Shown here: piece after piece, positions 1 to 12,710 of the stretch | How the letters are laid out: each line of letters opens with the position of its first letter | Numbering within the stretch: position 1 is the stretch's first letter | Source: a virus | Taxonomy: Duplodnaviria > Heunggongvirae > Uroviricota > Caudoviricetes | Direction: 5' to 3' (one strand) | DNA length: 14,947 nucleotides | Virus record (IMG/VR): IMGVR_UViG_2778261635_000005 | The notes under the pieces: generated by a model | The model's input: the letters and a program-made list of their open reading frames with translations, nothing else | Told to the model about the DNA's origin: nothing | Database searches by the model: none | Made by a program: the position numbers and the translations under genes

Positions 1-1284
1 TTACAGACTTCTGGAAGGTTGCGCAGCTCTTACAACACGCGGTTGATCTTCCGCAGCGTCTTCCAGCGCACTTAAATCACGGTCTTTCACCTCTGGCATT
101 TTCAGCGCAGAGATTAAACCAATCACTGAATATGCCATGATCATAATGGCGATCGGATACCAGGATTCCGTCATGGTGCAGAAAATACCCGCCAGGATAG
201 GACCAAAACCGGAAGCGATAAGACCACCAATTTCTTTAGAAATAGCCATCCGGGTAAAGCGGTTTTTACAGCCGAACATTTCTGCCATGGTAATGTTTTC
301 CAGAGCAAATAATCCCAGCACCGCACAGTTATGAATCACAATCAGTGCAACCATAATGGTGCTCGGGGCATAGCTTTTATCTACAATGATAGAAAGCATT
401 GGCCATGCCAGCACAATCGCGGAGGTATTCATAATAATATACGGGATCCGGCGACCAATTTTATCGGATAACCAACCAAGGAACGGAATGGTCATAAAGC
501 CGAGAATCGAACTGATCATCAATGCATCTGTTGGAATTGCTTTGTTAAACAATAACGTCTGCACTAAATAGCCTGCAAGGAAAGTCTGAATTAACCCGGA
601 GTTACCCGCCTGACCAAAACGCAGCCCTGTTGCCAGCCAGAAGGATTTGCTCTGGAACATGCTACCAGCAGGTGCAGGTTTTGCTGTCGGTTGGTTACTG
701 TCGTTAACCTTCTCAAAGACCGGGCTTTCTTTCAGATTCATACGCAACCAGATAGCAAAGACCATCACGACAACGCTCGCCAGGAACGGTATACGCCATC
801 CCCACGCCAGCAGTTCCTCTTTACTGAGAATGAAGAACATAAAGGCCCAGATTGCCGTTGCGCTCAAGGTTCCGCAGTTAGTTCCCATAGCCACAAATGA
901 GGAGATAATTCCGCGCTTACCTTTTGGCGCATATTCCGCCAGCATCGTACCGGCACCGGAAATTTCCGCACCTGCACCCAACCCCTGAATAATACGCAAC
1001 GTCACCAGCAAGATGGGTGCAAAAACACCAATCTGTGCATAGGTCGGTAACACACCAATTAAGGTGGTACAGATCCCCATCATGGTGATGGTAATAAAGA
1101 GCACTTTTTTACGCCCTATTCTGTCGCCCATTTTGCCGAAAATAAATGCTCCGACAATACGCGCCACATAACCTGCACCGTAGGTTCCCATTGCCAGAAT
1201 TAACGCCATTGCCGTTGATGATTCAGGAAAAAATATTTCATGAAACACTAACGCTGCGCCGAGCGAATATAACTGGAAATCCAT
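1..1284 (-). pseudogene. ydfJ: MFS transporter (metabolite:H+ symporter type), 5'-truncated remnant
   Basis: 427-aa ORF from the track with a multi-TM hydrophobic profile and MFS loop motif (FGKMGDRIGRKK). The ORF begins inside the conserved TM1 region (MDFQLY aligns with the E-W-F-D-F block of KgtP/ProP-type transporters) and an in-frame TGA lies two codons upstream of the ATG, so about 30-40 N-terminal residues and the native promoter are absent. Confidence 0.7.
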
Positions 1285-1530
1285 AATTCACAGGTGTTTT
1301 TTCCCATCCTGTGGTTTCCTTGGCGTTTTCTAGGTTTTTTCAGATAGTTGCATTTTTTAAAAAGCATCCTAAGTTCGATCTCAGTGTCTATCTGGGGCCT
1401 ATTTCTGTCCCATATATGCCCCAAAAAAAACTCCCCAACAGATAAGTAGTTTTTTCATGGATTTATGCGTAAAATCAAGAACGGCTGGAAATCATTCAAT
1501 ACTCACACTATCGAAAAATTTACCAGCCAA

Positions 1531-1570
1531 CCGCAGCACGTTCTTGCATAAGGCGTGTCTGCGGTTTTTC
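1531..1570 (+). terminator. Candidate intrinsic terminator (hairpin plus T-run)
   Basis: CCGCAGCACG ... CGTGTCTGCGG stem (about 10 bp with one bulge, 13-nt loop) followed by TTTTTC on the plus strand. No obvious upstream plus-strand gene, so function is uncertain. Confidence 0.3.
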
Positions 1571-1888
1571 AACTATTCAGATACATCACTCCCATCACAT
1601 TCATTCCTCCGCATCAAAGGCATATAGGCTATATCACCTTGATATTTTTATTTTTCAGATAAAAACTGTTATCTATGTATACTTTTAAACCCAATCCGTG
1701 TAGAGTCTCTGCATAAGATAGTTTGCAGTTGCCGCTTCAGCTTGCGCCATAAACCGCCTGATTTTTGCTGCCACCTGTTAGCATTCCTGTATACCTGAAA
1801 CGACAATGTTTATCTACGAACTTTAAGAACACCCAAGATAAAAATTGTCAACTATATCATATATAACACATTACTAATTCGAGGCTAT

Positions 1889-2002
1889 ATGAACAGCATA
1901 CTGATAATCACATCTCTCCTTATCATATTCAGCATTTTTAGTCATGCCCTAATAAAATTAGGGATTGGCATATCCAATAACCCAGACAAAACCGATGTAT
2001 AA
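1889..2002 (+). CDS. Candidate small membrane peptide (37 aa)
   Basis: ATG at 1889 preceded by GAGG (4-nt spacer); translation [37 protein letters not shown] has one predicted TM helix. Below the ORF-track length cutoff; AT-rich with several ATA codons, so could be spurious. Confidence 0.25.
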
Positions 2003-2070
2003 GTCAACATATCCTGAATCAGACATACAATATCGCAATGAAAATCAATAATATTTTAAGGAATATCTTC

Positions 2071-2304
2071 ATGAAATCAAAAGACACCCTAAAGTGGTTC
2101 CCTGCGCAGCTTCCTGAAGTAAGAATTATCCTAGGGGATGCTGTAGTGGAAGTAGCAAAACAGGGAAGACCTATCAATACCAGAACATTGCTTGATTACA
2201 TTGAAGGAAACATAAAGAAAAAATCATGGCTGGATAACAAAGAATTATTACAAACAGCGATATCAGTTCTTAAAGACAACCAAAATTTAAATGGTAAAAT
2301 GTAA
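2071..2304 (+). CDS. ydfK: YdfK/YnaE-family small protein (prophage cold-shock-associated gene)
   Basis: Track ORF 2038..2304; internal ATG at 2071 has an AAGGA RBS 8 nt upstream and gives the 77-aa product MKSKDTLKWFPAQLPEVRIILGDAVVEVAKQGRPINTR..., recognised from recall of K-12 YdfK. Confidence 0.8.
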   Translation: MKSKDTLKWFPAQLPEVRIILGDAVVEVAKQGRPINTRTLLDYIEGNIKKKSWLDNKELLQTAISVLKDNQNLNGKM

Positions 2305-2620
2305 TATAATAAACTTACTTTTTTATCATTTTTCCACTTTAACAACATTTTGCTCCACTTTTCCACGACCAAACAACTTGAAATCTGGTTAAAATAACAC
2401 GCAACACTATTCTTCTTCCTTGAGTCCGCCCGGAACTCGAAAAACAAACCGAGTTAAAGCCATTTTTCACAAAATCGATTTTGGGTCTCACCAAAATTAC
2501 GGGGTTGCATACGCATTCGTTTATTTTCGAACGTGTACATACAAATATGCACAAAAATAATCAAAATTATTTTCTGAGATGCATTATGATATGAACACCA
2601 ATTTCGTATAGAGTCTCACT

Positions 2621-3211
2621 ATGTCTCGAATTTTTGCTTACTGTCGGATATCAACGCTGGATCAGACCACCGAAAATCAACGCCGGGAAATCGAAAGTGC
2701 AGGTTTTAAAATCAAACCTCAGCAAATAATCGAAGAACACATTAGCGGCTCAGCAGCAACCAGTGAGCGTCCTGGTTTTAACCGGTTGCTTGCTCGCCTG
2801 AAATGTGGTGATCAATTGATTGTGACAAAACTGGATCGCCTTGGTTGTAATGCAATGGATATCAGGAAAACAGTGGAACAACTGACCGAAACAGGTATCA
2901 GAGTGCATTGCTTAGCATTGGGGGGCATTGACCTGACCAGTCCAACAGGAAAAATGATGATGCAAGTAATTTCAGCAGTCGCTGAATTTGAACGAGACCT
3001 TTTACTTGAACGCACTCATTCCGGGATAGTAAGAGCCCGGGGCGCAGGGAAACGTTTTGGTCGACCACCTGTGTTAAATGAAGAACAGAAACAGGTGGTA
3101 TTCGAACGAATTAAGTCAGGTGTAAGTATAAGTGCCATTGCCCGGGAATTCAAAACCTCGCGGCAAACCATTTTAAGAGCCAAAGCAAAACTTCAGACAC
3201 CTGACATATAA
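2621..3211 (+). CDS. pinQ: Serine recombinase (resolvase/invertase family), Pin-like
   Basis: 196-aa ORF; N-terminal catalytic region YCRISTLDQ (catalytic Ser), KLDRLG and GRPP motifs, C-terminal HTH ([18 protein letters not shown]); typical small serine recombinase architecture. Confidence 0.9.
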
Positions 3212-3216
3212 AAAAT

Positions 3217-3232
3217 AATCTCGGTGTGAGAT
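3217..3232. terminator. Weak hairpin between convergent pinQ and tfaQ (possible bidirectional terminator)
   Basis: ATCTC-GGTGT-GAGAT inverted repeat immediately after the pinQ stop, flanked by an A-run on the plus strand (a T-run on the minus strand). The stem is only 5 bp. Confidence 0.2.
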
Positions 3233-3308
3233 GCTTTACGTCTTCCAAGCCACCTTCCTTGCCGTAAATGGAAAGATACATCTAATTATAGAATTTATAT
3301 GTTTTACC

Positions 3309-3884
3309 CTACGGCAGTGCTGGCCATTCAATATCCTGTGCAGTTGACGTATCAACACGGTTCAGCAATACCCGATACTTTTTCCATGCTTCCAGCAACG
3401 AGATTTCTTCCTCCGTTGCAATTTCCAGATCTGCAGCATCCTGAAGCGGCGCAATATGCTCACTGGCTACCTGCATCAGGCTGTTTTTTGTTTCTTCCGC
3501 CTCCCGGATCCGGAACAGTTTTTCTGCTTCCGTATCCTTCACCCAGGCTGTGCCGTTCCACTTCTGATATTCCCCTCCCGGCGATAACCAGGTAACATTT
3601 TCCGGTAACGGACCGAGTTCAGAAATAAATAACGCGTCGCCGGAAGCCACGTCATAAACCGTTTTACCCCGATGATCTTCAACGAGATGCCACGATGCCT
3701 CATCACTGTTGAAAACAGCCACGAAGCCTGCCGGAATATCTGGCGGTGCAATATCGATACTGTTTGCTGGCAGACCTGTATGAGGCGGAATATATGCGTC
3801 ACCTTCACCAATAAATTCATTAGTTCCGGCCAGCAGATTATAAATTTTTATGGTCCGTGGTTGTTCACTCATTCTGAATGCCAT
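3309..3884 (-). CDS. tfaQ: Tail fibre assembly protein (lambda Tfa-like chaperone)
   Basis: 191-aa [37 protein letters not shown]... recognised as the lambdoid Tfa family; its start overlaps the stop of the upstream tail-fibre ORF (TAATG), as in stf-tfa pairs. Confidence 0.9.
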
Positions 3885-6064
3885 TATGCAAGCCTCACAA
3901 TATAGTTAAATGCGATGTTTTTGACGGTGTTTTCCGCGTTACCAGCAGCGTTAACGGTGATGGTATGTCCATGTGAACCAATCGCAACGGAGTGCGTATG
4001 AGCACCAATACCGACAGTATGTGCGTGTGCACCTGCGCTTGCAGCAGTACCCGATACAGAGTGCGTATGAGCGCCTGCAGAAGAAGTGTTAACACTGTAT
4101 TTAGAATAATCAGGTGATCCACTTCCCGGAGCACCACTGGAACCACCTGAAACAAATGTCATCGAATGGGTATGTGCACCGGCTGAAGCAGCCGTACCGC
4201 TAACACTATGGGTATGCGCACCAGTGTTATTCGTGGATTTAGTGCCGTAATCAAACGACGATGTGGTTTTCGTCCCCAAATCCGTACTGGATACGCTGGC
4301 GCTGTGGGTGTGTGATTTAATGCCGTCCTGTTCCTGAGACAATACGGCTCGATCACTGGCGGGCTTGCCCTTAATCGTCCAGCCACGCATATCAGGGATC
4401 ACGCCTGACGGATAAGCGGCTGCAAGTTTCGGGTAAGCAGATTTGTCAAAAGTCTGCCCCTGCATCAGGGCATAACCAGACGGAACGGTATCTGATGGCC
4501 ACGGGATTGGTGCACCGACTGGATAAAACTCTGCAGGAGGATGAGCCGAGGTGTAAAGCTGCGCCCACGGCGACCAGTTTGCGTCGGTCGTATCCCGTCG
4601 TGAACGAATAAATGCCGGAGCATGAGCACCGCTTGTACCACTCCAGCCGATGAGTAACTCACCTTCGCCAACGGCTGTCATCCCTTTCAGGTGAATGATA
4701 TTTCCATACGCTGTTGGATATCCGTTGTTATACACCTCGTATAACTCAAGACCTGTTGCCCCCTGCGTATTGTCTGTCAGCGCGGTTACCTGAACCACAA
4801 AACGGCGATGACGTCCCGCCTGCACATCCACTGTCGCCACAAGGAAATTAATGCCATCCGGCACACTGCGGGAAGGAACTGGCTCTGCCCGCTGCTCAAG
4901 CAGTTCACTTTTTCGTTGCTCCATGCTGGCACGAGGAAGATAAGGCAATCCCCAGTCGGTGTTGATAACCGCCCTGAGTGTTTCTTCGCTTCCTGTCGCT
5001 TCATACTCCTGTTCTGCAGTCAGTAATTTGTAAACCAGTTGCGCCCAGGTCTGATACGCAGCAGCTGGCCCTTCCATCCAGAAACTGGCGATACGGGAGC
5101 GGCGCGGTTCACCGGAAACGTTGCCGTTACGATCAATGACCTGACCTTCACGCAACCAGACTCCTGCACTATTGAGCTCACGCTTTTTCTCCGCAGTGAT
5201 AATGCCGCTGCAGTGCGGGCAAAGTAGATACGCCGCCTCACTGGCTTTAAAGGGATCCGGTTCATTACGGTAGCCGGTCATGGCATCCATGGCTGGCTGA
5301 AAATATTCACCGCAGTGCGGACATGACCAGTACCAGCGGCGGCGGTCACCACGATTGTAAAGGGAAAGAATACCAGTCGTCGGTGGCGCTTCATGAGGCG
5401 ACTTACGTCGCCATTTGCTGTCGCAGATGTCACGTCCCGGCGAGCTCTCCACCAGAGTCATCCCGGCGGACATAAATGTGGTGGTACGTTTTGAGGCCAG
5501 GGAGAAACCATCACCCTCGCTGTCGATATTCTCCGGAAAACGGTCGTAATCGGTTAAGGCGACAAACCGGTAATCCGACGACGACATAATGTTGACCGAG
5601 GGCCAACCAATTTTAAGGAACGAGCCATCCCTGAACGTCTTATCATGGACATTATTGTCGTTACGACGTGGACTCATTCTTTTCTTTACCGCCGCACTGC
5701 TTCTGAACGTTCTGTCGAGGCGCTTTTTAGAATGCTCGCGGGCCTTATCTTCGGTCATCTGCACAACGAGCATGTCCGAAGGATCGCAAACGATGGTATA
5801 GACAATCCATCCATCGATCAGACCAATGGTCTTCCCTGTTCGCGCAGGACCAACAAAAATCACCGCATCGTATTCACGCGATGCCAGGCAGTTCATGGGC
5901 TCAATGATGTAGGGTGTCAGTTCAGGATCCCATGGCACCGAGTTACCAGCCCCCTTGGGAACACGCATGAATTTTTTAACAGCCTCCGAAATCGGCATGC
6001 GACGTGGTGGGGAAAATCCTGCCGATATGTCCCTTCCCAAATTTCGGGCTGATGAAAAACCCAT
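3884..6064 (-). CDS. stfQ: Chimeric ORF: large terminase (gpA-like) N-terminal about 430 aa fused in frame to a side-tail-fibre C-terminal region
   Basis: 726-aa ORF with strong AGGAGG RBS. The N-terminal part has Walker A GPARTGKT (residues 72-79) and two CPHC motifs (248-251, 282-285) in the lambda gpA arrangement. The C-terminal part has a tail-collar-like block ([23 protein letters not shown]...DMRGW) and seven HxH motifs typical of fibre tips. The gene symbol refers to the tail-fibre portion; the reference annotation may split this ORF differently. Confidence 0.8.
3962..4315 (-). repeat. HxH-motif repeat region encoding the tail-fibre distal tip
   Basis: Seven His-x-His motifs (SHTHS, GAHTHS x4, GAHAHT, GSHGHT) in residues 584-701 of the fusion ORF; the 18-aa block [18 protein letters not shown] occurs twice with clearly different codons. 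Confidence 0.6.
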
Positions 6065-6072
6065 TATTCCTC

Positions 6073-6630
6073 CTAGAGACTCTCTCCTTCCTCATCAGGA
6101 ATTAATTCAGCAGCACAAGCCTCGTAGGATTTTTCCTGAAGAGTGTATCGCAGGTCATCAATTGCCTGCTGTACAACGCCGACGGCCTGAGGAGTCAGGG
6201 CGCAATCGCGTTCAAGAACATCCGGAATTGTCTCCAGAACCTGGACGACAGCCTTTCTCATGGACGAATAGACGATGACTACTTCATCAACGGGGATGAG
6301 TTTTCGCTGCTCCTTTTCCAGCTTGATCCTTTCATTTTCAGACTGGTACCAGTCCTTTCTCTCTTTCGGCTCCATACGGGATGGATCATGAACAGAGTCT
6401 GCTGCCTCATGCTTCACACTAAACAGGGCTGGCCCGACATGCTGCAGGGCGTAAACGGGGTTCCCCCTGACAGTCGCAGCCACAGGAGTGTTGGCCGCGA
6501 GAAGCCGTTTTTTTACTGTGTCCCGGTGAAGCCCAAAGGCCTCAGCGATTTTAAAAACACTCCAGTAATAAGCATCACCGATCCCGCTCACATTTGACAT
6601 AAGCAACTCCATCTGGCAGGTGAAAATCAT
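6073..6630 (-). CDS. nohA: Terminase small subunit (lambda Nu1-like DNA packaging protein)
   Basis: Track ORF of 185 aa with an N-terminal winged-HTH-like segment ([23 protein letters not shown]) and overall Nu1-like layout. The RBS-supported start is the internal ATG at 6600 (GGAG 6 nt upstream, product MSNVSG..., 175 aa). Lies between the cos site and the gpA-like ORF as in lambda. Confidence 0.8.
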
Positions 6631-6720
6631 GTTTATTTATATATTTCAATTAATTGTAAACTGGTCTAATGACAGGGAGAAAAAAATATTGTACAGGTAA
6701 AAAGAGAAATAACTTTTAAT

Positions 6721-6860
6721 TATCAATAAATTACCAAACATGCTGCCGCCGCCATGGAAATGCAAAAACTAGCCTTTTTCCGCGACGCTCCCGCCCCGTG
6801 GCAGGGGCCCCCACCGGGAGGACCCGACAGCCTGACAGCCTGACAGCCTGACAGCCGTGA
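6721..6860 (-). other. cos site region (cosN-like 12-mer at 6785-6796, IHF-consensus match at 6721-6733, repeat array on the cosQ side)
   Basis: Minus-strand sequence GGGTCCTCCCGGTGGGGGCCCCTGCCACG GGGCGGGAGCGT CGCGG aligns with the recalled lambda cos junction GGGTCCTTTCCGGTGATCCGACAGGTTACG GGGCGGCGACCT CGCGG. TATCAATAAATTA matches the IHF consensus WATCAANNNNTTR. The position, about 185 bp upstream of the Nu1-like gene, matches lambda. Confidence 0.55.
6825..6856. repeat. 8-bp tandem repeat, CGACAGCC followed by three perfect TGACAGCC units
   Basis: Read directly from the sequence; lies immediately on the cosQ side of the cosN-like sequence. Confidence 0.9.
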
Positions 6861-6992
6861 CGAGCATCTGATACAGCGCTTTACATAATGGCATAGGAAT
6901 AATTCAGAAGGACATCACAGCATGCCCACACAAATTAGTGTGAGTGTCCTGTTTCTTCCTACGCACAGGACTGACGAGCATGAGGGGAAAAT

Positions 6993-7160
6993 ATGCGAAC
7001 CATAAATGCCTCATCTTCAGCAATGCAGCCGGCATCCGAACAGGACGATATTGTAAATTCACCTAATTACGAGGACATTGCAGTAGTTGAATTGCAGCTC
7101 TGTATTAGCCTGACAGTGACAGAATGCGATATTGACTCTGTCACAGGTGAAATAGTTTGA
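6993..7160 (+). CDS. Candidate small acidic protein (55 aa)
   Basis: ATG at 6993 with GAGGGG RBS 5 nt upstream; translation MRTINASSSAMQPASEQDDIVNSPNYEDIAVVELQLCISLTVTECDIDSVTGEIV. Below the track cutoff; no recognised family. Confidence 0.3.
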   Translation: MRTINASSSAMQPASEQDDIVNSPNYEDIAVVELQLCISLTVTECDIDSVTGEIV

Positions 7161-7180
7161 ATGATTAGCAGTTATGGTGC

Positions 7181-7387
7181 TCAGTCAACCACCAGGGAAT
7201 AATCCTTCGAATTCTTATCGTGCTTCACCAACGCTGCCTCAATTGCCCTGAATGCTTCCAGAGACACCTGATGTTCTATACATGCAATTACAACATCCGG
7301 GTAACTCATAGAAATGGTGCTATTAAGCATATTTTTTACACGAATCAGATCCAACGAGAGTTCATCAGCAGATTGTTCTTTATTCAT
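7181..7387 (-). CDS. Hypothetical small protein (68 aa), prophage cargo
   Basis: Track ORF with ATG start and GGAG RBS at 7-nt spacing; convergent with the 55-aa candidate. By position between the Nu1-like gene and ydfO it may correspond to K-12 ynfO, but the sequence itself is not recognised. Confidence 0.55.
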
Positions 7388-7687
7388 TTTGTCGCTCCAT
7401 GCGTTTGCTCGTCATCTAGCGGTTAAAATATTACTTCAAATCTTACTGCATAAAAGAGGAAAAGTATGAAAGTTTGAGTACATCGACCTTACATACATCT
7501 GTCGGTTGCATATCCCTCCTGGATGCCAGCAAGGCTCAATTTTGTTACGCAATCAACACTATTCATTAAAAACAGGCTTAATATTTGACATAAATCATCA
7601 ACAAAACACAAAGAGGTCAGACCAGATTGAAACAATAAACACGATAATGCAAACTACGCGCCATCGTATCACATGGAAGGTTTACCA

Positions 7688-8098
7688 ATGGCTCAGGCTG
7701 CCATTTTTAAAGAAATATTCGATCAAGTGCGTAAAGATTTAAACTGTGAATTATTTTATTCTGAGCTAAAACGTCACAATATCTCACTTTATATTTACTA
7801 TTTAGCCACAGATAATATTCACATTGTGTTAGAAAACGACAACATAGTGTTAGTAAAAGGACTCAAAAAGGTTGTAAATGTTAAATTCTCCAGAAACAAA
7901 CATCTTATAGAGACCTCCTATAATAAGTTGAAATTAAAAGAAATCACATTTCAACAATACAGGGAAAATCTTGCTAAAGCAGGAGTTTTCCGATGGGTTA
8001 CAAATATCCAGGAACACCAAAGATATCACTATGCCTTTGATAACTCATTACTATTTACTGAAAGCATCCAGAAAACTACACAGATCTTACCACGCTAA
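7688..8098 (+). CDS. ydfO: DUF1398-family protein
   Basis: Track ORF 7673..8098; the ATG at 7688 (product [18 protein letters not shown]...) has a GGAAGG RBS 7 nt upstream. Sequence recalled as K-12 YdfO. Oriented against the late operon. Confidence 0.8.
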
Positions 8099-8249
8099 AC
8101 CATAACGTCCGGCTTCTCTCACTCCTGAGCCGGACTGCATTGGTTTAATAAAAACCATCAACAATTGTGATTTAGATATTCGGAACCATTCAAATATAAC
8201 AAAACCCCGTAAAAACGAGGTTTATGGATAAATTTTATTATTGAATACA

Positions 8250-8423
8250 TCAGATTAAATTAATCTTGACATCATAGCTTTCAAGACCCGTCATTTTTTC
8301 CCGTGCGGTAAACTGAATACTGGTAACTTCTTTCCCGGTCTTTTTCTTAAGTTCAATAATTTTTTTTGTTATATATTCAGAAATATCTGCTTCTGCTTTT
8401 GTTTTTAAGTTTTCAATATTCAT
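8250..8423 (-). CDS. gnsB: GnsA/GnsB-family small protein
   Basis: Hand-translated 57-aa ORF (M)MNIENLKTKAEADISEYITKKIIELKKKTGKEVTSIQFTAREKMTGLESYDVKINLI with AGAGGA RBS; below the track cutoff. Matches recall of GnsB. A weak hairpin with a T-tail follows on the minus strand (8205-8220). Confidence 0.85.
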   Translation of the reverse strand: MNIENLKTKAEADISEYITKKIIELKKKTGKEVTSIQFTAREKMTGLESYDVKINLI

Positions 8424-8594
8424 CATTTCCTCTTTTAGTCTGTTATGACTTTCCAGTTACACAGTAAGTCGATTATATGGTGCAAACGTGTAAAAGATAA
8501 GATGAAACATCGCAATAATCAACATACGATAGTCTAAATTTTACACAAACAGACAAAGAGAATTTTCCTGAATTATCAATACAATAGCATCAAA

Positions 8595-8825
8595 TCAACT
8601 CAAGAGCCTTATTGCTGCTTCCAGAATTTCTTCTGAAGTAACATGTCGATCCGCGGCTACATAAATGACTTTATGATCTCCGGTCAGAGATGGAAACCCT
8701 GCGGCCATTACAGTAAGGTGTGTTTTTTCGCCATTTGGATATTCACGCATGATGGTGTTAACTCCAGTCATCGCTGGCACTACCACTGCTGGTTCAGAGT
8801 TAAAAAAAACTATGATTTTTTTCAT
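8595..8825 (-). CDS. ynfN: Hypothetical small protein (ynfN-like); start uncertain
   Basis: Track ORF 8595..8867 begins at a TTG; in-frame ATGs at 8825 (MKKIIVFF..., 76 aa), 8771 and 8750 (MREYPNG..., 51 aa). None has a strong SD. Coding-like throughout. Position between cspI and gnsB matches K-12 ynfN; symbol given on positional grounds. Confidence 0.5.
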   Translation of the reverse strand: MKKIIVFFNSEPAVVVPAMTGVNTIMREYPNGEKTHLTVMAAGFPSLTGDHKVIYVAADRHVTSEEILEAAIRLLS

Positions 8826-8870
8826 GATGTTACCGTAGTATGTGAGTATCCATCGAATAGATACCAAGCA

Positions 8871-8889
8871 AAAAAGCTCCCGAAGGAGC
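8871..8889 (-). terminator. Intrinsic terminator downstream of cspI
   Basis: On the minus strand GGCUCC-UUCG-GGAGC (5-bp GC-rich stem, UUCG tetraloop) followed by UUUUU. Confidence 0.45.
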
Positions 8890-9096
8890 CTTCATTTTCA
8901 CTTTTTTAAATCCAACGACAGACGGCTGGCATTTAAGTATTGTGAAATATTATCAAATGTAATCATCATTGATTTACAAAAGATACATTTTGCCCCGAAA
9001 GGATTCATGTCAGAAACATCAAAAGATGATGTTCTATACTGGGAACCATGACAACACGGGCATCTAAAGTGAATATGGTTTGTAATATTGTCTACC

Positions 9097-9309
9097 TCAA
9101 AGCGCCACTACATGAACAGCGGCAGGACCTTTAGGTCCGTTCTCAATACCAAATTCAACTTCCTGATTCTCAGTTAATGTTTTGAAATCGTTGCTCTGAA
9201 TTGCTGAGAAATGGACAAACACATCTTTGCTGCCATCTTTCGGCGTGATGAAACCAAAACCTTTTTCAGGGTTAAACCATTTCACTAAACCAGTCATTTT
9301 GTTAGACAT
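9097..9309 (-). CDS. cspI: Cold shock protein, CspA family
   Basis: 70-aa [41 protein letters not shown]... with RNP1 (KGFGFI) and RNP2 (VFVHF) motifs; AAGG RBS 7 nt upstream. Confidence 0.95.
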
Positions 9310-9418
9310 AATTATTACCTTTTGAAGAAATTAGCCCTTGGGCAGAATGGTCCGAAAAAAAATATCAGAGAGAAAAACCAACAAGGAAATCTCAAGAGGT
9401 ACAAATAATAAAATTATA
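9310..9418 (-). promoter_or_regulatory. cspI promoter and 5' UTR (candidate -10 TATAAT at 9418-9413)
   Basis: Perfect TATAAT about 100 nt upstream of the cspI ATG on the minus strand; CspA-family genes typically have long 5' UTRs. No clear -35. Confidence 0.35.
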
Positions 9419-9672
9419 ACAATGACTGCTTCAGATAAATTTGTAACAAACCAGAACACCATTAACGCATGATTAACCACCCATAGCAAGGATTACTTTT
9501 GTAAAGAAAAACACAGCAATGAAAGAATAGCTTTATTTATTAATAATAACGTGTCATTCTGATTAAGACCTTTTATCTTACCCTTAAGATTTCAGGAATT
9601 TTGGCTCATGGAAGAGTCCTTTTTATTTAAATTTTACATTCCGCGATGTAAATGTTCCGATTTAATATTACC

Positions 9673-10696
<1,024 letters not shown>

Positions 10697-10700
<4 letters not shown>

Positions 10701-11008
10701 ATATATTTATGATGAGGACGCTCGTGTTTATTGGCAGGATTTTCAATCTTAAAGGAGTACTGATGCTGCAGATAAGACTCAACTTTTTCTGACAATTTTT
10801 CTGCTACTTCCAGGAAGACTTGCCGGACGCTCCTTCTGGCTGCTGCCTCATAAAACTCCAGCGCAGCTCCTTCAACACGGTCCATGGCGACATCCAGGTC
10901 AAAAATTTCACCGTCAAAGCGTTCTTTGTCCTGTAAGGCTACAGTTACCGTAACTTTATTCTCAAAATTACGGACTCCTTTCACAACCAGTTCATAGTCT
11001 TGAGTCAT
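10697..11008 (-). CDS. ydfR: DUF1327-family protein inserted between holin and lysozyme
   Basis: 103-aa ORF with GGAGAG RBS inside the end of the holin gene; its stop overlaps the lysozyme start (ATGA). Confidence 0.8.
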
Positions 11009-11012
11009 TGGA

Positions 11013-11228
11013 TTACTCTCCTCTCGCAGCCTTACGCCTGTCTTCTTTAATCTTGAAATAAAGATTTGTCAGATACGTCAGCAGGCCAAAAACCAGGCTA
11101 CCCAGCACACCGATTGCAGCCCACTGTGACGGAGTTACTTTATCGAGTAACTGCAATGCCCAGAAACCAGCATTACCCGCCGATGTGCCATAGGCAACAC
11201 CTGTTGTTAACTTATCCATTGATTTCAT
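11013..11228 (-). CDS. essQ: Class II holin, phage 21 S-type pinholin with dual start (MKSM...)
   Basis: Track ORF 11013..11303; the in-frame ATG at 11228 gives 71-aa [71 protein letters not shown], near-identical in layout to recalled S21 (two TMDs, dual Met starts). Confidence 0.85.
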
Positions 11229-11447
11229 ATCCTCACCCCGATGTACACGGATGGTGCAATATGTTTGAAAAGATCGGAGTCTACGGGGTAGTTTTGACAG
11301 CACACGCTGTTCTCAACGGCGCTAAAGAAACATACACATTAAAAATGTGAGTAATTATTTTGAAAGAAAGTCATATATAAAATAATAATACGAGAAATGT
11401 TTTCATATTTAGTGTACTGTATACGGCCATTTATACAGGAAAAGCCT

Positions 11448-11618
11448 ATGTCAGAACGTAAAGACTCAAAATCACGCCGTAATTATCTCGTTAAATGTTC
11501 CTGCCCAAACTGCACCCAAGAGTCAGAACACAGTTTTTCAAGAGTACAAAAAGGTGCCCTTTTGATCTGCCCTCATTGCAACAAAGTATTCCAGACAAAT
11601 CTTAAAGCTGTAGCCTGA
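11448..11618 (+). CDS. Small zinc-ribbon protein (56 aa)
   Basis: In-frame ATG within track ORF 11397..11618 with AGGAAAAG RBS 7 nt upstream; product MSERKDSKSRRNYLVKCSCPNCTQESEHSFSRVQKGALLICPHCNKVFQTNLKAVA carries CxxC...CxxC. Oriented against the late operon. Confidence 0.5.
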   Translation: MSERKDSKSRRNYLVKCSCPNCTQESEHSFSRVQKGALLICPHCNKVFQTNLKAVA

Positions 11619-11670
11619 TTGATTTTATTAGTAACAAGTATTTTTTATATTTTAATAATATATTTAAAGC

Positions 11671-11699
11671 AGATAATAAAAAACCCGCCTGAGCGGGTT
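11671..11699 (-). terminator. Strong intrinsic terminator ending the cspB transcript region
   Basis: Minus strand AAACCCGC-UCAG-GCGGGUUU stem followed by UUUUAUUAU; about 280 nt downstream of the cspB stop. Confidence 0.6.
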
Positions 11700-11981
11700 T
11701 GAGATTGTGGTGCTTTTTGTGGGAGTCATCCACTTACGCACTTTGTTTTGCCATGCCAGCAGTTAGCTTCTGCTGTAAAACTATTCATGCAGCAAACCTG
11801 CACTTCACCACAATGGTTAGCATACTTTTCCTGATTAAGATTTTGCCAAATATGCTGGCCATTGTTTCATGTATTGGACCTCCTTAATTTTTATTAAAGA
11901 AATCCAATATTCACTACTCTGTCCGTATCTCTACTCAGGCATCAGCCTTCTTCGTTATCGTATACAGACGAGCGATGAATT

Positions 11982-12197
11982 TTAATCAGTAATGATGACA
12001 TTTGCTGCTGCAGGACCTTTAGCACCACTCTCTATAGAGAAGGTAACCTTTTGACCTTCAAATAAGGTTCGATAATTATCATTCTGAATCGCAGAAAAAT
12101 GCACAAACACATCTTTACTACCATCAACAGGAGAAATAAAGCCGAAACCTTTATCAGCGTTAAACCATTTTACTAAACCAGTCATTTTATTTGACAT
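11982..12197 (-). CDS. cspB: Cold shock protein, CspA family
   Basis: 71-aa [41 protein letters not shown]... with RNP motifs; AAGGA RBS 7 nt upstream. Confidence 0.95.
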
Positions 12198-12360
12198 TCT
12201 ACATTCCTTAACTTGAGCCTTTCGGCATAAATGGTTTGCATAACAGAAACGACTTCGTACTTAATTGGAGAGACTCAAAGAAGGAATAAGTGAATAACAC
12301 CTGAAATGAGAACTGCTTTAGTAAACTACTTCGTATATCGTCTGTTCTTCAAACCGACGC
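12198..12360 (-). promoter_or_regulatory. cspB promoter and long 5' UTR (candidate -10 TTAATG near 12359-12354)
   Basis: About 150-nt leader between a cspA-like -10 (TTAATG, preceded by TTGCTT at about 18 bp) and the ATG; consistent with the long 5' UTRs of cold-inducible csp genes. Confidence 0.35.
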
Positions 12361-12497
12361 AATCATTAACGCATAGTTGAACATATGAAGCAATGTTTAT
12401 TTTAGACATCCAGCCATCTTCAACCCCATCAAAAAACTATAGCTTTCTTCAGGAACGTGTGTATAGTGCGCCAAGTTATCAGTATTAAGGAATTTTT

Positions 12498-12710
12498 TTG
12501 TCCCGTAAAATGACAGGAATTGTCAAAACCTTTGACGGCAAAAGCGGCAAGGGTCTTATCACCCCATCCGATGGTCGTATCGATGTCCAGCTTCATGTTT
12601 CAGCGCTCAATCTCCGCGATGCAGAAGAAATTACCACCGGATTACGCGTGGAATTTTGCCGGATAAATGGTCTGCGTGGCCCTTCAGCTGCCAATGTTTA
12701 CCTTTCATGA
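12498..12710 (+). CDS. cspF: Cold shock protein homolog, CspA family
   Basis: 70-aa track [43 protein letters not shown]...; initiates at TTG with AAGGA 7 nt upstream; divergent from cspB. Confidence 0.9.

Follow-up and report, generated by a model that had tools for sequence, protein, structure and literature searches.

Does a defective prophage with a truncated large terminase gene still carry a cos that a helper phage could use? The question was raised by one stretch of a 14,947-nucleotide virus record (IMGVR_UViG_2778261635_000005, the whole of which is called the window here), where a sequence-only reading had claimed that a lambda-like cos survives in a defective prophage. Both parts of this claim held, since the ends of deposited phage genomes coincided with the site and the large terminase gene (TerL) was truncated in a Qin-like element. 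We consider it very probable that positions 6613–6825 hold a complete cos of the cdtI/Tritos type within a Qin-like deletion prophage, silent in cis and nickable in trans. As far as the sequence can tell, the cos is undamaged and would belong to the lambda-like group, in which the cohesive ends are 12-nt 5′ extensions.

On the minus strand, positions 6780–6825 read GGGTCCT CCCGGTGGGGGCCCCTGCCACG GGGCGGGAGCGT CGCGG. The first block (6819–6825, minus strand) is the cosQ equivalent and matched the cosQ of lambda and of Gifsy-1 at 7 of 7 positions; in lambda, cosQ is the packaging-termination signal. The spacer between cosQ and cosN (6799–6818, minus strand) has kept its length among relatives with a variable sequence, and cosQ lies 22 nt from the nick, compared to 23 nt in lambda. 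The cosN (6783–6798, minus strand) consists of the 12-mer GGGCGGGAGCGT (6785–6796) with CG at each nick, and this is where the phage records terminate. A TerL of the gpA family would nick 12 bp apart, at 6797/6796 on the minus strand and 6785/6784 on the plus strand, which would leave 12-nt 5′ overhangs. The two-fold symmetry of cosN extended to 8 of 16 bp, compared to 10 of 16 in lambda.

The lambda cos junction for comparison was assembled from NC_001416. The 12-mer GGGCGGGAGCGT was identical to its lambda counterpart GGGCGGCGACCT at 8 of 12 positions; bp 1–6 were all the same, mismatches were confined to bp 7, 8, 9 and 11, and CG was present at both nicks. In natural lambda-like cos sites, the 7 bp of cosQ are invariant (Feiss et al., PMC4669245), the left half of cosN and the CG at both nicks are conserved, and variation is limited to bp 7–12 (PMC4669245). 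The window cos agreed with these rules (PMC4669245) in cosQ, its spacing, bp 1–6, the CG flanks and the positions that vary. Furthermore, the composite pattern GGGTCCT-N(19–23)-ACGGGGCGG was present a single time in the window and in none of 200 dinucleotide-preserving shuffles.

The sequence-only reading had described a block-for-block match to lambda cos at nearly identical spacing and had proposed alignment with the authentic lambda site as a check. Its coordinates were exact, including 6785–6796 for the 12-mer, and the blocks were collinear in a local alignment with 31 of 48 identities and one 1-bp gap (aligned rows, CGGGTCC-TCCCGGTGGGGGCCCCTGCCACGGGGCGGGAGCGTCGCGG / CGGGTCCTTTCCGGTGATCCGACAGGTTACGGGGCGGCGACCTCGCGG). 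Neither strand of the window offered a higher-scoring place. The score was equalled by 25 of 1000 shuffles, which is modestly significant alone, and because it is only modestly unusual the alignment score was not taken as the main evidence. The pattern of agreement at conserved and variable positions is more informative than the score. A global alignment to lambda with free end gaps missed the block that the local alignment found. An Rfam scan of 6000–7700 gave no matches, and a promoter and terminator scan of 6500–7300 gave nothing above chance.

The minus strand of window positions 6600–6950 was then compared to 50,697 phage records. The independently deposited records of phages cdtI (AB285204 / NC_009514) and Tritos (OV696610) both start at query base 155, which is window position 6796, with the first bases GGGCGGGAGCGTCGCGG. 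The last bases are ...GGGTCCTTCCGGTGGGGTGGCCTGCCACG in cdtI and ...GGGTCCTCCCGGTGGGGGCCCCTGCCACG in Tritos, so that both records terminate in ...GGGTCCT...CCACG at window position 6797; these termini are as deposited, be it from physical mapping or from analogy with lambda. Judged on sequence, this match to deposited phage ends is the strongest evidence for the identity of the cos. Between cosQ and a point about 94 bp past the nick, identity of the window to Tritos was 100%, and four substitutions followed in the next ~100 bp, that is, in distal cosB and the leader of the small terminase gene (TerS), before the TerS start.

Both phages carry the same cos as the window and are 97–98% identical to it across cosB and TerS. 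Tritos also has the same left flank with the 8-bp repeat (three units), whereas cdtI has an unrelated left flank and no repeat units. Unlike the window, both are complete phage genomes with a full-length terminase. A literature search for the 12-mer or its complement matched only an unrelated mammalian paper, a search for 'phage Tritos' returned nothing, and no experiment on this cos type was found in the literature searched.

The cos was compared to two better-known systems. Lambda shares with the window an identical cosQ, bp 1–6 of the cohesive end, CG at the nicks, a collinear layout, an IHF consensus that lies between cosN and the TerS gene and points the same way, and a gpA-family TerL. 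It differs at bp 7, 8, 9 and 11 of cosN, in an I1 site about 15 bp farther from cosN, in R3/R2/R1 repeats, of which none were recognised in the window cosB, and in a small terminase of the Pfam Nu1 family. Gifsy-1, which is counted among the lambda-like cos phages (PMC4669245), has the cosQ GGGTCCT and the cohesive end GGGCGGCAGCGT, with one base different (bp 7). However, its small terminase is of the Nu1/phage-21 type and its cosB is different; the first 200 bp of Gifsy-1 contained no IHF consensus within one mismatch.

An exact search of IMG/VR for ACGGGGCGGGAGCGTCGCGG returned more than 120 stretches, and 122 loci were compared. To the left of the nick, at least seven unrelated flanks were present, and in all loci similarity began exactly at GGGTCCT. 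To the right, the loci fell into three classes, in which the first 34 bp were common and bp ~35–62 were divergent. An ATTGAT(A/T) core at bp 62–76 was again common to all three cosB classes, and divergence resumed beyond it. Of the 122 loci, 101 had a full IHF consensus match that began at bp 62 or 64. TerS identity was 42% between class A and classes B or C and 86% between B and C, while TerL was 88–99% identical across classes. Lambda and phage 21 likewise have a common cosQ and cosN with different cosB/TerS specificity (PMC4669245). These comparisons indicate that one cosQ–cosN core serves at least three TerS/cosB specificity classes, in parallel to lambda and phage 21.

Within this framework, the subsites to the right of the nick could be assigned. 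The conserved block of bp 13–34, CGCGGAAAAAGGCTAGTTTTTG (6763–6784, minus strand), did not differ among the consensus sequences of the three cosB/TerS classes and probably serves large-terminase positioning or DNA bending. The next segment, bp 35–63 (6734–6762, minus strand), is G+C-rich and class-specific and contains CATGGCGGCGGCAGCATG. Because the classes diverge here, with TerS only ~42% identical and TerL 88%, it was taken as the likely recognition segment for TerS. Its position resembles that of lambda R3, which lies at bp 50–65 (PMC9026076).

The IHF consensus site TATCAATAAATTA follows at bp 64–76 from the left end (6721–6733, plus strand) as the counterpart of lambda I1 and perfectly matched WATCAANNNNTTR. 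This was the single match to the consensus on both strands of the 14,947 bases, compared to 1.29 expected, and about 0.015–0.02 matches would be expected in a cosB interval of ~170 bp. The site had been placed where lambda has I1. Its presence, its orientation (that of the lambda I1 core) and its uniqueness in the window were confirmed, but its position required correction, since it lies at bp 64–76 instead of 79–91, about 15 bp nearer to cosN. The remainder of cosB and the TerS leader (6613–6720, minus strand) is A+T-rich and includes a second near-consensus IHF match at bp 141–153 (6644–6656). The complex cosB of lambda-like phages is defined as R3-I1-R2-R1, with the IHF site between TerS sites (PMC4669245). 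A repeat search of the window cosB for R3/R2/R1-type repeats gave only A+T-rich low-complexity pairs.

The small terminase gene (6073–6612, minus strand) is intact and encodes 179 aa from the cdtI-type start, with an alternative start at 6600. Its product was assigned by Pfam to DUF1441 (PF07278, E = 1.9e-44) and by PHROG to family 141, 'terminase small subunit' (E = 3.8e-65), and shared 98% identity with an E. coli cluster of 1,238 members. It had been called Nu1-like. The description stands for the role and for a kinship at the profile level: the product cross-matched the Nu1 family PHROG 57 (E = 1e-9), and in the reverse direction both Nu1 (E = 6e-8) and K-12 NohA (E = 9e-8) matched PHROG 141. 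It does not stand for family membership, since the Pfam family is DUF1441 and BLASTP against lambda Nu1 was not significant (E = 4.8). An hhalign comparison of a 28-sequence DUF1441 profile to the single Nu1 sequence gave E = 0.03 over the HTH only. Thus, remote ancestry shared with Nu1 is probable from the PHROG cross-matches alone.

The AlphaFold model of TerS (mean pLDDT 77) has an N-terminal helix, helix, beta hairpin and helix, followed by long helices; the predicted order of this N-terminal domain resembles that of a winged HTH. A Foldseek search of PDB with the model gave no match below E = 0.5, and the best domain-level matches, to MerR/Xis-type winged HTH proteins, were not significant. 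A PDB sequence search with TerS returned nothing, and the literature on DUF1441 yielded incidental mentions only.

The large terminase gene (4785–6064, minus strand) is truncated to approximately residues 1–426 of 699, which leaves the ATPase domain whole and about 100 residues of the nuclease domain. The fragment is fused in frame to the C-terminus of a tail fibre, and the whole chimeric ORF (3884–6064, minus strand) encodes 726 aa. By Pfam, the chimera comprises GpA_ATPase at residues 40–303 (PF05876, E = 4e-80), then GpA_nuclease at profile positions 1–99 of 294 (PF20454, E = 4e-26), then Collar and Phage_fiber; the PHROG assignments agreed. These results bear out the earlier claim that the small terminase and the ATPase half of TerL are retained. 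The terminase part was 98.96% identical to cdtI bases 1–2012 with no gaps. As a single piece, the junction of TerL and tail fibre was found in 0 of 5,426 complete E. coli genomes.

The window matched E. coli chromosomes at ~99% identity. The locus lies at ydfJ and shows the Qin gene order (ydfK-pinQ-tfaQ-stfQ ... ydfO-gnsB-cspI-lysis-cspB/F-Q-ydfU), in agreement with the annotation of a 99% identical genome. Window positions 1–4788 and 7610–12643 aligned to K-12 Qin at 96–99%, and positions 4789–7609 hold the cdtI-type cos, TerS and the TerL fragment where K-12 has the nohA module. K-12 Qin resembles the window in the ydfJ site, the flanking genes, and a cos and small terminase beside a tail-fibre remnant. 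Unlike the window, it carries a true lambda cos, identical to lambda from cosQ to cosN, and the Nu1 homologue NohA. On these alignments, the window is a Qin allele with a different packaging module.

Compared to strain KD602, a further 3.3 kb was missing from the window, comprising the rest of TerL, a small gene, the portal gene and a protease fragment. In strain CE0026f, the same late region and an identical cos precede a terminase, portal, protease-capsid and tail module that is complete. Because CE0026f combines an identical cos with a complete module, the window is a deletion derivative of a cdtI/Tritos-like prophage. By the sequence comparison, the prophage has lost everything from the middle of the TerL gene to the end of the side tail fibre gene. 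The Pin/Gin crossover core AAACCNNGGTTT was sought at the shared deletion breakpoint near 4788 and was not found there.

These deletions raise the possibility that the cos and TerS, perhaps with the ATPase-only TerL fusion, were kept by selection for superinfection interference or for transfer of the neighbouring chromosome. If so, the module could titrate or poison the terminase of incoming relatives at a chromosomal cos and thereby defend the cell at the level of packaging, or a helper might start from it to package the neighbouring ydf region of the chromosome. The K-12, KD602 and window alleles have different downstream deletions and all keep a cos and an intact TerS, K-12 has a lambda-type cos with nohA in the same slot, the intact window TerS shares 98% identity with a very large E. 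coli cluster, and the TerL fragment is fused in frame. However, the nested deletions share one left breakpoint, and retention may reflect the anchoring of deletions at that point; an in-frame fusion is expected by chance in one third of cases, and ~99% identity among strains leaves no power to detect selection. The shared retention in three alleles is compatible with a defence or transfer function and does not demonstrate it, and we regard this explanation as very unlikely.

The reading of the site as a complete phage cos in a deletion prophage leaves the adjoining array to be accounted for. The 8-bp array (6825–6861) consists of CGACAGCC and three units of TGACAGCC (6825–6856), or, toward the terminase, GGCTGTCA three times and GGCTGTCG. 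Tandem Repeats Finder placed it at 6826–6861 with a period of 8, 4.4 copies and a score of 63, and a separate repeat search gave four copies at 8-bp spacing. The array abuts cosQ, with one base in common. Among the 122 IMG/VR loci, the number of units beside cosQ was 0 in 31, 1 in 1, 2 in 81 and 3 in 9, and the four-unit form occurred in none. Tritos has three units, HannyBb two and cdtI none. The four-unit form of the window recurred in strain CE0026f, which was 100% identical over 231 bp.

An 8-bp tandem repeat flanking the cos had been reported from the sequence. The array at 6825–6856 is real, but it varies from 0 to 4 copies, lies outside the conserved cos block and is missing in some phages with this cos. 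It could be functional, with units bound by terminase or by a host protein and a role in tuning cosQ-dependent termination. It touches cosQ directly through the shared base, and at least two units were counted in 91 of the 122 related loci. Such a role is nevertheless very improbable: cdtI and the 31 loci with other left flanks have no array despite the same cosQ–cosN block, copy number ranges from 1 to 4 inside one flank lineage as replication slippage predicts, and lambda has nothing comparable upstream of cosQ. Most simply, the array is a slippage-prone short tandem repeat of one left flank and not a packaging signal. The comparison of loci indicates that it is dispensable and variable and lies outside the conserved cos block.

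A further explanation holds that the locus derives from a cos and is no longer a substrate, for instance owing to the four-unit repeat or to base changes close to the start of TerS. In its favour, the prophage has undergone heavy deletion, four substitutions from Tritos fall in distal cosB and the leader, and four repeat units were seen in 0 of 122 IMG/VR loci. Nevertheless, from cosQ through the IHF site, with the spacer, cosN, the conserved block and the candidate TerS site in between, the window is 100% identical to Tritos. The repeat stands outside the conserved block and numbers 0–3 units in isolated phages, and in CE0026f the identical four-unit cos adjoins a complete packaging, head and tail module. 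Loss of function is therefore judged highly improbable. The idea that a G+C-rich intergenic stretch resembles lambda cos by chance was refuted by the results and has practically no probability left, since, although 25 of 1000 shuffles reached the lambda alignment score, the composite pattern appeared in none of 200, phage records end exactly at the window cos, terminase genes lie immediately downstream, and the conservation boundary falls at cosQ.

With the site read as a complete cos, its mode of action can be proposed on the model of lambda (PMC4669245, PMC9026076). In the parent phage, the DUF1441 TerS would bind cosB, IHF would bend the DNA at 6721–6733, and TerL would introduce the two nicks given above. 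DNA would then be translocated toward the terminase genes, that is, toward lower window coordinates on the ydfJ side, up to the next cos, where GGGTCCT would act as the signal for the terminal cut. Since the resident TerL is without most of its nuclease domain, the window site is presumed silent in cis. Because the cos appears undamaged, a co-resident or superinfecting helper phage of the same cosB class (class A) should bind and nick it in trans, and we consider such recognition and nicking plausible and indeed likely.

Use in trans has a precedent in O157 Sakai, in which the terminase-defective prophage Sp4 is packaged, most likely by the terminase of Sp14, since the putative cos sites of the two are nearly identical (PMC2669165). 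Like the window, Sp4 is a lambdoid prophage without a working terminase and with its cos intact, and O157 genomes carry relatives of the window's cos region. However, Sp4 is excised and amplified before it is packaged, whereas the window gave no sign that the Qin-like element excises or replicates. The terminases of cos phages require a second cos to complete packaging (PMC6687093), and therefore one chromosomal cos alone would give no transducing particles. Lateral transduction is reportedly absent in cos phages (PMC12829572). Mature particles would arise only with two cos in the same orientation about one genome length apart, or after excision and the formation of concatemers; productive transduction through the window cos is thus conditional.

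The cos of Gram-negative PICIs, which likewise has no working terminase of its own, is also cut by the lambda-like terminase of a helper, with cosQ, cosN and their spacing conserved (PMC9026076). PICIs differ from the window as mobile islands that encode an integrase, replication functions and Rpp, and in having a cosB that bears no relation to that of the helper. A satellite cos of the PICI type was considered and rejected, since the neighbours here are phage terminase, tail-fibre and late genes, with no PICI genes beside the cos, and the cosB is identical to that of Tritos.

The locus is of a known kind, a lambda-type cos that belongs to a common lineage of E. coli phages and survives in a cryptic prophage of a common type. 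Its main value lies in annotation, because this cos type is unannotated in RefSeq. The family can be recognised by a simple rule, cosQ GGGTCCT followed after 22 nt by GGGCGGGAGCGT. The comparison also points to the co-resident phages that could cut the chromosome here, and it bears on prophage–prophage complementation of the O157 type (PMC2669165). The by-products of the analysis are a precise subsite annotation, the three-class structure of cosB and TerS, and the dispensability of the array; no new mechanism is involved.

Of 5,426 complete E. coli genomes, 2,107 carried the 231-bp cos region, and the RefSeq annotation beneath it was 'none' among the matches listed. Among species-representative genomes, the exact cosN was found in E. 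coli and E. ruysiae only, apart from five matches in MAGs or contigs of unrelated taxa. These five off-taxon matches look like mis-binned or contaminating DNA.

The packaging module has been swapped between alleles of one cryptic prophage, Qin. The same slot is occupied in the window by a cdtI-type cos, TerS (small terminase) and a fragment of TerL (large terminase) (4789-7609), versus a lambda-type cos with nohA in the K-12 Qin stretch (L130, 5842-6969), where cosQ and cosN are both identical to those of lambda. To the right of cos, positions 7035-7639 of the window were 87.6% identical to lambda 47,502-48,090, and a 68-aa ORF of PHROG 657 (7181-7387) was located within this lambda-like DNA. 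The window resembles lambda in the DNA right of cos but differs from it in the type of cos itself, and a mosaic boundary is located somewhere within 6826-7035.

The tail-fibre-side breakpoint was identical in three Qin alleles, at position 4788 of the window, 5841 of the K-12 stretch and 7788 of the KD602 allele (L001). The partner at this breakpoint was different in each allele, being mid-TerL in the window, the 3' end of nohA in K-12 and a ClpP-protease fragment in KD602. Qin deletions were anchored repeatedly at one base on the tail-fibre side. Neither a Pin/Gin-type crossover core nor an IS element was found at the shared breakpoint.

In the window, the C-terminus of the side tail fibre was joined in frame to residues 1 to approximately 426 of TerL, which generates a chimeric ORF of 726 aa (3884-6064). 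The two aligned segments overlap by 4 bases at the junction (4785-4788). Among 5,426 complete E. coli genomes, this exact junction was present as one piece in none, and the nearest alleles were approximately 110 bases longer.

The three cosB/TerS classes (A, B and C; IMG/VR loci L006-L125) have the cosQ-cosN core and a further 22 bp in common. Between class A, to which the window belongs, and classes B and C, identity was 42% for TerS and 88% for TerL. This class split around one cosQ-cosN core parallels the specificity split between lambda and phage 21. Directly upstream of the TerS start in the window, a second, near-consensus IHF match was located at 6644-6656 (cosB bp 141-153 from the left cohesive end; CAATTAATTGAAA, one mismatch).

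In the contig IMGVR_UViG_2574179916_000005 (L010), cos blocks occur at three places (approximately 93, 8228 and 10760), all with the same orientation. The block near 93 consists of a class C cos, TerS and an ATPase-only TerL fragment. It is separated by integrase, Bro-N, AAA_25 and SSB from the block near 8228, a class A-like cos that lacks TerS and precedes a ClpP-capsid fusion gene. The block near 10760 is a further cos with a DUF1441 TerS. This contig possibly represents a satellite-like element making use of a cdtI/Tritos-type cos.

The exact 20-mer spanning cosN was also found in five records that carry the labels Treponema, Sphingomonas, Streptomyces, Veillonella and Bacillota (L131, L133, L134, L135 and L137), four of which are MAGs. 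These copies are probably Escherichia phage DNA that was mis-binned or contaminating.

Elsewhere in the window, a 21-bp unit occurs twice (85% match) at 7821-7862, within the DUF1398 (ydfO-like) gene at 7673-8098.
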